This document shows positions 24,024-25,165 of a DNA stretch of 64,000 nucleotides, piece by piece; the first letter of the stretch is position 1, and every line of letters starts with the position of its first letter. Under the pieces are notes generated by a model that saw only the letters and a list, made by a program, of their open reading frames with translations, did no database searches and had not been told where the DNA came from. Source of the stretch: Saprospira grandis (lineage in GTDB: Bacteria > Bacteroidota > Bacteroidia > Chitinophagales > Saprospiraceae). Where the stretch lies: contig NZ_CP110854.1 of the NCBI RefSeq assembly GCF_027594745.1, positions 1,372,241 through 1,436,240 of the forward strand, given 5' to 3'. Made by a program: the position numbers and the translations under genes.

Positions 24024-24180
24024 TTGGGGCTGCCCCTCGCTTCGCTCGGGTCGGGCCATTGCGCAGCTCGCTATTCGCTCGGCCCTGCAGCGGCAAAGCC
24101 GCTTTGGTCTGCCGCCTGCGGCGGCCCTGCTACAGCCCCTCAGCCTGCGGGCGCTGCGCGCCCTGCTAGACCAAAAAAGG
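24024..24180. repeat. MITE-like half element (F orientation, 'CTGCTACAGCCCCTCAGCCTGCGG' subtype)
   Basis: TTTGGGGCTGCCCCTCGC...GCGCAGCTCGCTATTCGCTCGGCCCTGCAGCGG...CTGCTACAGCCCCTCAGCCTGCGGGC. Confidence 0.75.
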
Positions 24181-24231
24181 GCCAGCCATTTTCTGGCCAG
24201 CCCCTATATTATGTAAAGTTCTTCTCATCCG

Positions 24232-24840
24232 CTACTGAAAGTATTTATCGTCTACTTTCTGCCGAACAATAGAAAGGACCTTAGTTTTAGAAATCAGCTT
24301 CCCATATTTATCATAGGTAGTAGAATTTAAGGGAAAGCCCTTTGCCCCAGTCTGAATGAGGGCCTGTATGCCATAATCATTCTTTAGGTAGGCGGCATAT
24401 TTTTTTAGGTCCACATCAATTTCCTTGACCAGCTCGACCTCTGTATTAAATTTATCGGTTTCGATATTGAGCGTATACAGCTGCCCAAACTCTACTGATT
24501 TTCGGACCTTTTCGCTCTTAATCACCGCATTGCTCAGGCCCAAGTCGGCCTGTATATCTCGAGAAGATATTTCTTTTTTGCTCTGCCCTTCCTCCGATTG
24601 AATGACCATGAGCATGTTGTTTTTCTGTGGCTGAGGCACAAAACGCATCTTTAGAGAGTTCGGGTCTGATTTGGTTTGCACCTCAAAGGCAATTTGGTCC
24701 TTTTTGATGTACCAGTTTAGCTGATAACGCATACCAGCTTCCCCTTCTTGCTCCATTTTAATGACCCCTTCAAAGTTTTGGCCCTGTAAAGGGAGTAGGC
24801 CTATGAGTAGGAGAATCAATCCCCCGAAAAGCTTATGCAT
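24232..24840 (-). CDS. Hypothetical secreted protein / lipoprotein
   Basis: Signal peptide MHKLFGGLILLLIGLLPLQGQ. Flanked on both sides by inverted copies of the repeat element. Confidence 0.4.
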   Translation of the reverse strand: MHKLFGGLILLLIGLLPLQGQNFEGVIKMEQEGEAGMRYQLNWYIKKDQIAFEVQTKSDPNSLKMRFVPQPQKNNMLMVIQSEEGQSKKEISSRDIQADLGLSNAVIKSEKVRKSVEFGQLYTLNIETDKFNTEVELVKEIDVDLKKYAAYLKNDYGIQALIQTGAKGFPLNSTTYDKYGKLISKTKVLSIVRQKVDDKYFQ

Positions 24841-25009
24841 AAGTAGTAGCTCTATTTAAGTTAAGTAGTTTCTAGTCGGTAATTTTGCGCAAGTATAAAA
24901 GTTGCAAACAATTTGCCAAGATTGTTTTCTGCTCAGGCTTGGCCGCTAATTTAGGTATTACACCCAGAAAGCCCCCCTTATATAAATTTAGCTCAGGGTT
25001 AAATCCTTT

Positions 25010-25165
25010 TTTTGCGGCAGACAGGCGGCGAAGCCGCCGCAGGCTGAGGGGCTGTAGCAGGGCCGCCAAAGGCGGCAGACCAAAGCGGCTTGGCCGCTGC
25101 AGGGCCGAGCAGACTTGCGAGCTGCGCAATGGCCCGACCCGCCCAGAGGGCGGGGCAGCCCCAAA
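25010..25165. repeat. MITE-like half element (R orientation, same subtype as 24024-24180)
   Basis: ...CCGCAGGCTGAGGGGCTGTAGCAGGGCCGCC...GCAGGGCCGAGCAGACTTGCGAGCTGCGCAATGGCCCGACCC...GGGGCAGCCCCAAA. Confidence 0.75.

Follow-up and report, generated by a model that had tools for sequence, protein, structure and literature searches.

The Correia/NEMIS elements are examples of MITEs, one of the described kinds of bacterial repeats with which we compared a repeat family of Saprospira. Other points of comparison are the REP sequences, which carry a conserved GTAG/CGTC tag at one end of a palindrome (PMC3733652), and the BIMEs, clusters within which neighboring units stand in alternating orientation (PMC2817692). 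REPINs are made of two inverted REPs that form a hairpin and are mobilized by RAYT transposases (PMC3116915, PMC3337134). MITEAba12 is a further example of a MITE, and the composite transposon Tn6645 is flanked by 8-bp target duplications (TSDs) and has an empty site in a related strain (both in PMC6382973). Our search of the literature found no description of repeats in Saprospira. The family analyzed here works most like REP/BIME, and its tight pairs resemble REPINs. It is set apart by the size and architecture of its unit, by its heterotypic halves, by the lack of a RAYT so far, and by an alternation and pairing that span genes.

The analysis started from a stretch of 64,000 nucleotides of a Saprospira grandis genome (hereafter the window), where the original prediction had described two inverted copies of one repeat around a single gene. 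Both copies were recovered with a half-element profile built from 18 copies of the repeat. One lies in F orientation on the plus strand at 24022-24178 (nhmmer E=4.8e-29, model positions 1-152), the other in R orientation on the minus strand at 25009-25166 (E=2.7e-30). Both are of type B, and the latter is well-structured. The F arm has its head, TTTGGGGC, at 24023 and its tail rightward; the R arm has its head at 25165/25166, toward the stop codon of a gene encoding a 476-aa protein. The heads thus point outward and, as predicted, the arms flank one gene: the single open reading frame between them, at 24232-24840, encodes a 202-aa protein of the DUF4412 family. A repeat search found two inverted segments, one of 55 nt (24022-24076/25112-25166, 85% complementary) and one of 102 nt (24077-24178/25009-25110, 86% complementary), which are a single arm pair of about 157 nt, with a 1-nt indel shifting one segment relative to the other. 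Both arms contain the 24-mer CTGCTACAGCCCCTCAGCCTGCGG without mismatch, and it is found again at 2054 and 62478, i.e., four matches where 0.00 are expected. The GC content of the arms is 67-72%, for 47.7% in the whole window. The data support a pair at 24022-25166 that is genuine and non-random, and that has the geometry of a compact full element of the family, with the heads TTTGGGGC outward and the tails inward.

The two arms resemble other copies as much as they resemble each other. The window has four copies of their subtype, with 88-90% mutual identity. The R arm (R25166) is nearer to the copy F62373 (90.4%) than to its bracket partner (89.0% gapped identity), and both arms are about equally related to the copies at 62373 and 1970, one of which is 37 kb off. 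Judging by these identities, the arms of the DUF4412 bracket are not sister copies. They also differ in structure when their folds are compared with those of shuffled sequences: the signal is clear for the R arm (z=-2.9/-4.4) and weak for the F arm (z=-0.5/-0.7), whose first hairpin has decayed.

To place the pair among its relatives, we characterized the family. A BLAST search of the window with one arm gave 17 hits, the profile search gave 22 half-elements, and relaxed settings of the profile added one degenerate copy (27880-28136). Every copy is intergenic. The boundary of the repeat is sharp, with an AT-rich flank giving way to TTTGGGGC, a terminus present in 19 of the 22 copies. Conserved cores (GCTCGC..GCTCGGCCCTGC, GGTCTG, and C[GC]CT[AC][AG]GCC) stand in a fixed framework and are interrupted by GC hairpins, whose positions are constant and whose stem sequences vary freely (hairpin H2 is found in 37 and H3 in 38 of 39 copies). 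As a single strand, the repeat is predicted to fold into several hairpins that branch from one closing stem, formed where the head pairs with CAGCCCC. A CTAC follows some of the internal hairpins (e.g., GGCGGCCCTGCTAC in the subtype of the bracket) and is not conserved across copies. There are two types of half-elements, A and B, and the compact full elements of the window consist of A and B joined tail to tail. These tight pairs measure about 280-650 nt from end to end, and their termini read TTTGGGGC...GCCCCAAA.

The density of the family in Saprospira is one copy per ~2.6-2.9 kb. Two plasmids, from S. grandis strain Lewin and Saprospira sp. CCB-QB6, carry 21 and 20 copies. A second Saprospira genome (JGI sample Ga0193958), which is about 85-88% identical to the window where they overlap, has 210 copies in 541 kb (80 contigs). 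The family was absent from every locus sampled in more distant Saprospiraceae, including Aureispira. Searching the 64-kb window with Rfam at the gathering score revealed two tRNAs only and no match for the repeat. The family, which is genus-restricted, extremely abundant, and non-coding, resembles a mosaic of the REP/BIME kind more than a classical MITE. The repeats also break short-read assemblies of Saprospira: an arm is where each of the contigs L002, L135, and L136 stops.

The orientation of the copies revealed a clear pattern. Along the plus strand of the window they follow the order F R F R R F R F R F R F R F R F R R F R F R F, where 20 of the 22 transitions alternate (binomial 6e-5). 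The order in the Lewin plasmid (L013) is F R F R F R F R F R F R F F R F R F R F R, with alternation in 19 of the 20 transitions (2e-5). The Ga0193958 genome has 71 FR, 44 RF, 8 FF, and 7 RR transitions, i.e., 115 of 130 alternate (p=1.4e-20). When the tight pairs are set aside, alternation is still found in 87 of 102 (p=8e-14). Hence, the frequency of alternation is 91% in the window, 95% in the plasmid, and 88% in the second genome, against 50% under random orientation. A link between orientation and the direction of transcription was rejected, since heads face 3' ends of genes 100 times and 5' ends 85 times, a difference that is not significant.

The pairing itself is polarized. Copies of the window that share one spacer are always F then R, with the tails together, and all 28 tight pairs are F->R, with zero R->F. 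Gaps between F and R vary continuously in length, the shortest being 10 nt and the longest 5.2 kb (median of 1157 nt for the loose ones), whereas those between R and F have a median of 3517 nt and are never shorter than 1070 nt (MWU against loose F->R, p=3e-9). Tails face another copy 68 times, heads never. The family thus follows an alternating, heads-outward pairing rule that is apparently undescribed, with pairs that in most cases have nothing or one gene between them, and the DUF4412 bracket is not a product of chance. We also compared the sequences of neighboring arms. The similarity of loose F...R arms shows a slight excess over random pairs (0.717 vs 0.682, p=0.008), and that of R...F neighbors shows none (0.687). 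The similarity of tight partners is below that of random pairs (0.643, p=0.006), which would fit an intolerance of long palindromes that are close to perfect. That bracket partners might be sister copies was rejected at the DUF4412 locus, and in general their excess similarity is only weak.

The arrangement of the DUF4412 gene is ordinary in terms of what the brackets enclose. Exactly one gene lies in 24 of the 43 loose F...R interiors. The genes of these interiors nearly always have one direction of transcription, and their mean number is 1.28, for 2.5 in R...F intervals. Other genes of the window are bracketed in the same way, namely those encoding ThiC (39470-41341), an AhpC/TSA-domain protein (28521-29768), and an arginase-family protein. 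Single genes bracketed F...R in the Lewin plasmid include purH, purD, and paaZ. The 55 proteins encoded within loose brackets of the Ga0193958 genome have diverse core functions (adenylate kinase (adk), PurE, Maf, PhoH, M24 peptidase, lipid A acyltransferase, and others), and there is no recurrent transposase among them.

We then considered the bracketed gene (24232-24840, minus strand). Its assignment to DUF4412 (PF14371) is based on precomputed hits of its homologues; searching Pfam directly with the 202-aa protein gave nothing at E<=0.01. The gene had been predicted to encode a secreted protein or a lipoprotein. The N-terminal segment of the protein is indeed hydrophobic and signal-like, but the protein cannot be a lipoprotein because it has no cysteine at all. 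Among 5.8 billion proteins, we found no paralogue or second copy at 61%-99% identity. When we sought an intermediate relative of the locus, the identities of DUF4412 proteins dropped from 99% to 61% and those of the 476-aa protein from 99% to 69%, with nothing in between.

The gene seems to have its own transcription signals inside the arms. A hairpin resembling an intrinsic terminator (a 12-bp stem followed by TTTTTT) lies at 24177-24205 on the minus strand, between the gene and the F arm. The spacer containing it is identical in the metagenome contig L001. We take it as the putative terminator of the gene because relatives have an equivalent hairpin and T-run at this position. For the same reason, we rejected the idea that it is the remnant head of a lost partner copy. 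On the other side, between the gene and the R arm, a promoter-like site, TTGGCA-16-TATACT (24892-24919, minus strand, 10/12 match), is the best of its kind and overlaps the motif TTGGCAAATTGTTTGCAAC at 24901-24919. This motif (TTGGCAAATTGTTTG) is kept upstream of the orthologue in five relatives (L003, L004, L006, L008, and L011). If the putative promoter and terminator are used, the gene's own transcript should contain neither arm.

The neighborhood of the gene indicates how long it has been there. Upstream is the gene of a 476-aa glycine-rich protein (25192-26622, minus strand), with homologues matching PF26696 (PTL_trimer) and PF05268 (GP38). On the other side, a 207-aa membrane-like open reading frame (23353-23976, plus strand) is convergent with the DUF4412 gene, and 45 nt separate its stop from the F-arm head. 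This reading frame has no counterpart in the loci of relatives, and thus 23353-23976 marks a breakpoint of synteny. We compared the locus with those of eight other Saprospiraceae, all of which are devoid of the repeat family. The 476-aa gene is followed by the DUF4412 gene in 8/8 of these loci, and in 6/8 the gene of a Cys/Met-PLP enzyme lies beyond the 476-aa gene, in the same order as in the window. None of the eight loci matches the repeat family, and the spacers that were read, in three relatives, are AT-rich, short (126-195 nt upstream), and repeat-free. Since the order of the two genes is ancestral in 8/8, the R arm, whose insertion point in the window is 25 nt past the stop codon of the 476-aa gene, landed within a pre-existing gene pair. 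The conserved synteny shows that the arms were added in place, around an existing gene. The DUF4412 gene is thus an ancestral resident, apparently single-copy, with putative transcription signals of its own.

The other strains of S. grandis concur on the stability of the locus. A scaffold of strain DSM 2844 (L007) matches the window at 94-95%, and the contig L001 matches the window at 97-98%; the DUF4412 locus was not among the 80 contigs sampled from the Ga0193958 genome. Both arms are at identical sites in the window, L001, and L007, and the two JGI contigs that end inside the R arm (L135 and L136) have the same R-arm junction. Hence, there was no sign of the presence or absence of the unit as a block, which had been proposed as a check of the original prediction. 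All nine repeat sites compared between the window and L007 are shared (9/9). The gene has one orientation throughout the window, L001, L002, and L007, and when we searched for an inverton, the bracketed segment was found in this single orientation only. The arms have changed more than their surroundings. The closest strain is L001; its flanks are 97-98% identical to those of the window and its R arm 89%, this arm having been patchily replaced by another subtype. One hairpin of the F arm was swapped whole between the window and L001, with every change compensatory (GGGCGCGCAGCGCCC vs GGCCCCGAAGGGGCC). This patchwise replacement looks like gene conversion among copies. The assignment of both arms to the same subtype therefore holds in the window, where they share an exact 24-mer, but it is a labile trait.

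We searched more broadly for traces of mobility. The direct target duplications expected outside the arms were not found: the flanks of the DUF4412 bracket, ending in CTGTTTAGAAGGGAA on the left and starting with TCTATAGTAGGGCCC on the right, share only a 4-mer, at different offsets. The 42 other loose brackets had no signal of target duplication at offsets 0-10, and in 25 tight pairs the matches equaled those of shuffled controls at every offset. No copy changed site between strains or plasmids that are 90-95% identical. When searching for gains and losses, we found that the two plasmids (L013 and L014) share all sites, and that the Ga0193958 genome and the window have two short overlaps only, both with the same occupancy. 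The differences between strains and plasmids are internal to the repeats, i.e., a nested AT-rich mini-element of 156 nt, an extra hairpin module of 45 nt, and a microhomology deletion. No bracketed segment was inverted between strains or plasmids, and the regions they share are collinear. A search for HUH/Y1 transposases in 0.73 Mb, using IS608 TnpA as the query, gave nothing significant. Likewise, no RAYT was found among the bracketed proteins, and no transposase, RAYT, or recombinase in the approximately 0.7 Mb searched, a sample outside of which a single-copy gene could easily lie, and no parent insertion sequence with matching ends was seen in the sampled sequence.

These results allow a more precise comparison with the known systems. 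Like the REPs and BIMEs of enterobacteria and pseudomonads, the Saprospira repeats are extragenic, lineage-specific mosaics of GC-rich hairpins, present in very high copy number, with neighbors in alternating orientation and no target duplication. However, a REP is a single palindrome of 20-40 nt, whereas the Saprospira unit has ~150 nt, four hairpins, and a sharp TTTGGGGC terminus. The alternation of BIMEs takes place over tens of nt within one spacer, whereas here it spans kilobases and whole genes. Furthermore, there is no RAYT in the 0.7 Mb searched, and the host is a member of the Bacteroidota. The compact full elements are similar to REPINs in being inverted doublets of related units with a short spacer, in coexisting with singlets, and in lacking target duplications. 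In contrast to REPINs, the tight halves are less similar than random pairs and hence make no hairpin that is close to perfect, the spacer of the doublet varies continuously up to the size of a gene, and, besides the lack of a RAYT in the sequence searched, the sites are constant between strains 90-95% identical.

The family is further away from MITEs. It is also small, non-coding, and intergenic, with inverted termini, and it can adjoin genes or sit within other repeats. Yet, it lacks two characteristics of MITEs, with no TSD in 25 full elements and no insertion polymorphism in the strains and plasmids compared. In addition, the sequence sampled showed no parent insertion sequence whose ends match, and the interior is a mosaic of hairpins rather than that of a deleted insertion sequence. 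The DUF4412 locus recalls a composite transposon, since two inverted copies of one repeat flank the gene. However, it shows no TSDs, no empty site or other block polymorphism, and no second location. What would be its cargo is a resident gene that has kept its ancestral place and synteny, and the non-autonomous arms, which share 89% identity, are not sister copies.

We think it probable that the DUF4412 gene is a resident whose two spacers acquired copies of the repeat through the heads-outward pairing of the family, and that the bracket does not mobilize the gene. This reading builds on direct observations: the copies with their anatomy and abundance, the statistics of alternation and pairing, the ancestral position of the gene, and sites that are stable and have no target duplications. 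In the lineage of Saprospira, each of the spacers flanking the resident gene would have acquired one repeat copy of ~150 nt. The default architecture of the family would be the F...R pair, in which the two tails are turned toward one another and the distance between them ranges from 10 nt to the length of one or several resident genes. If such pairs are the default, orientations alternate along the replicon. A single insertion would create a direct neighbor, and thus an alternating array can only grow by the addition of F and R together. From this parity, the arms of the bracket were most likely deposited as a pair, although the notion that copies are born as pairs draws on the parity argument and the statistics rather than on an observed event. 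The statistics of alternation may also mean that unpaired copies were lost. The arms of the DUF4412 locus are not each other's closest relatives, which speaks against pair deposition, and the support for their common origin is weak.

Several routes could lead to such pairs. A second copy may be recruited to the tail side of the first, both copies may derive from one event, or a nearby copy may be copied in inverted orientation by template switching. Alternation might instead result from selection for paired arms or from the purging of neighbors in direct repeat. In any case, the deposition would leave no target duplication, and the copies would later be homogenized in patches by gene conversion among them.

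Among the other explanations, the one that survives best, though we regard it as unlikely, is that brackets are functional and kept by selection, or that alternation arises by deletion of direct-repeat neighbors. The bracket might then act as a transcriptional or topological insulator, allow long-range RNA pairing in read-through transcripts, or provide the arms of an exchangeable or invertible cassette. Alternation and short F...R intervals with a single gene fit a function exerted pair-wise, and the hairpins are maintained in spite of the turnover of their sequences. Moreover, copies fill the spacers of the pur and paa clusters of the plasmid, and are thus probably co-transcribed with them. 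However, the predicted transcript of the DUF4412 gene includes neither arm, which argues against RNA pairing at this locus, and the strains and plasmids show no inversion of bracketed segments. Furthermore, the first hairpin of the F arm is gone and the fold of this arm does not surpass that of shuffled sequences, neighboring arms are on average about 70% identical, and the repeat has no match in Rfam.

We find it improbable that the bracket is a coincidence, i.e., that two unrelated solo insertions took place in opposite orientation in adjacent spacers, with no pairing rule. At one copy per ~2.8 kb, neighboring spacers are commonly occupied, and as the subtype accounts for 4 of 23 copies, about 0.5 adjacent pairs of the same subtype are expected per window. 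That the arms are not each other's closest relatives also fits with separate insertions. But coincidence predicts that half of the transitions alternate, far from the frequencies observed in the three datasets, and it accounts neither for the large difference in length between the short F->R and the long R->F gaps nor for the lack of tight pairs in the R->F order. Both the alternation and this asymmetry of the gaps are present in about 0.7 Mb.

Finally, we consider it very improbable that a composite mobile element, with the arms as its terminal inverted repeats, has captured the gene and can move it as a block of 1.1 kb: the same-subtype arms are inverted, heads outward, exactly around one gene, with the geometry of a compact full element, and F...R brackets are statistically real units, but the gene is at its ancestral position beside the 476-aa gene in 8/8 relatives, it has no second copy, no target duplication, and no block polymorphism in the strains and contigs examined, the arms have diverged to 89% and are not sisters, other brackets enclose core genes (adk, purE, purH, purD, and thiC) and no transposase, and no copy changed site between strains 90-95% identical. 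The original prediction of a passenger-carrying version of the element is thus retained for the architecture, which the pair shares with the compact full element, and given up for capture and mobility, of which there was no evidence and against which there is good evidence: the gene has an ancestral neighbor, a promoter-like site and a terminator of its own, and no TSD. The prediction named as its refutation relatives that carry the gene at this locus without the repeats, and the repeats at unrelated positions. Relatives do carry the gene here without repeats; as for the repeats, they lack the family altogether.

The DUF4412 locus is therefore an ordinary one for this genome, and the interesting result is the pairing rule of the family. 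The repeat occupies a large share of the intergenic spacers of Saprospira and keeps its hairpins while the sequences of the stems turn over. The pairing rule (p ~1e-20) is not predicted by any standard model of the spread of REPs or MITEs. We tentatively suggest that units of ~150 nt are deposited, or kept, in heads-outward pairs that enclose resident transcription units, a possible mode of repeat propagation or genome punctuation that would be new with respect to REP/BIME, REPINs, and MITEs. If true, this would imply a mechanism depositing pairs, such as tail-side recruitment or template-switch copying, or a selection acting on pairs. If the rule holds genome-wide, Saprospira would offer a tractable system to study the paired, TSD-free propagation of bacterial intergenic repeats, and any part that inverted pairs enclosing one gene may play in transcription, topology, or recombination could be addressed there.

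The half-elements (hairpin repeat copies of about 150 nt) alternate in orientation across the 23 copies of the window, the Saprospira plasmids L013 (strain Lewin) and L014, the DSM 2844 scaffold (L007), and the 80 contigs of the Ga0193958 genome (L015-L094): 20 of 22 transitions in the window, 19 of 20 on L013 and 115 of 130 in the Ga0193958 contigs. Tight pairs are only found tail-to-tail. The gaps going from an F to an R copy are short, with a median of 1157 nt for the loose brackets, and none of those going from an R to an F copy is shorter than 1070 nt. One F to R interval of the window, between F44440 and R45188 (44583-45187, 605 nt), has no ORF of at least 80 aa. 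This interval may once have enclosed a gene that has since decayed, which would make the bracket an intermediate between a loose and a tight pair. At window 38914-39470, another F copy is followed by the 392-nt leader of ThiC (39470-41341); we found no Rfam match to a TPP riboswitch at the gathering score in this leader.

Closely related strains differ by whole hairpin modules of the half-elements, which were exchanged or gained. The hairpin at window 24145-24160, in the F arm next to the DUF4412 gene (24232-24840, minus strand), is GGGCGCGCAGCGCCC vs GGCCCCGAAGGGGCC in the S. grandis metagenome contig L001, where the flanks are 97-98% identical. In DSM 2844, this arm has an extra 45-nt module (ACAACCAGCCCCTATAGGGGCGCCAGTTCGACAACC...) close to its head (L007 10965-11000), of a type also present at window 27908-27940 and 38958-38988. 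In the degenerate F copy at 27880-28136, the hairpin module GTCGAACTG...TTGTCG is internally duplicated. The orthologue of this copy in DSM 2844 is a normal half-element (E=1e-20), and the 110-aa ORF overlapping the degenerate copy (27925-28257) is probably spurious. A second, AT-rich mini-element of 156 nt is nested in type-B half-elements, inserted between CTCAGCC and TGCGG, at L007 10704-10859 and L014 21197-21352. Its inverted ends read CCAGATTTAA[A/T]CGC...GCG[G/T]TTAAATCTGG, and this end motif occurs twice in the 80 Ga0193958 metagenome contigs. It is missing from the corresponding positions of the window, L001 and L013, the matching stretch of L013 having been lost by deletion between AGCCA[G/A]ATTT microhomologies.

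The DUF4412 gene and the neighbouring gene of a 476-aa glycine-rich protein (25192-26622) form a pair conserved across Saprospiraceae (L003-L012), with a conserved motif, TTGGCAAAT[T/C][G/C]TTTG, between them. Homologues of the 476-aa protein match PF26696 (PTL_trimer) and PF05268 (GP38), which are phage-tail-adhesin-like domains. Directly outside the R-arm head (window 25166-25191), around 42 nt common to L001 and DSM 2844 are missing from the window and from the S. grandis contigs L135 and L136. Hence, the DNA flanking the head is unstable, despite the arm itself being fixed in place.

Synteny between Saprospira genomes is broken at window ~17458, left of which the DSM 2844 sequence has no match to the window, and at 50256-51911, where the genes 50301-51329 and 51331-51903 are missing from the Ga0193958 contig L025. 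The short-read metagenome contigs L002, L135 and L136 of S. grandis terminate within half-elements. Hence, this family fragments assemblies.

The plasmids L013 and L014, of ~53-55 kb, carry purine biosynthesis genes (purH, purB, purD, purN, purF, guaA, guaB), together with pyrimidine genes and those of the phenylacetate (paa) pathway. Many spacers among these genes are occupied by half-elements, which, given this location, are probably co-transcribed with the surrounding genes.
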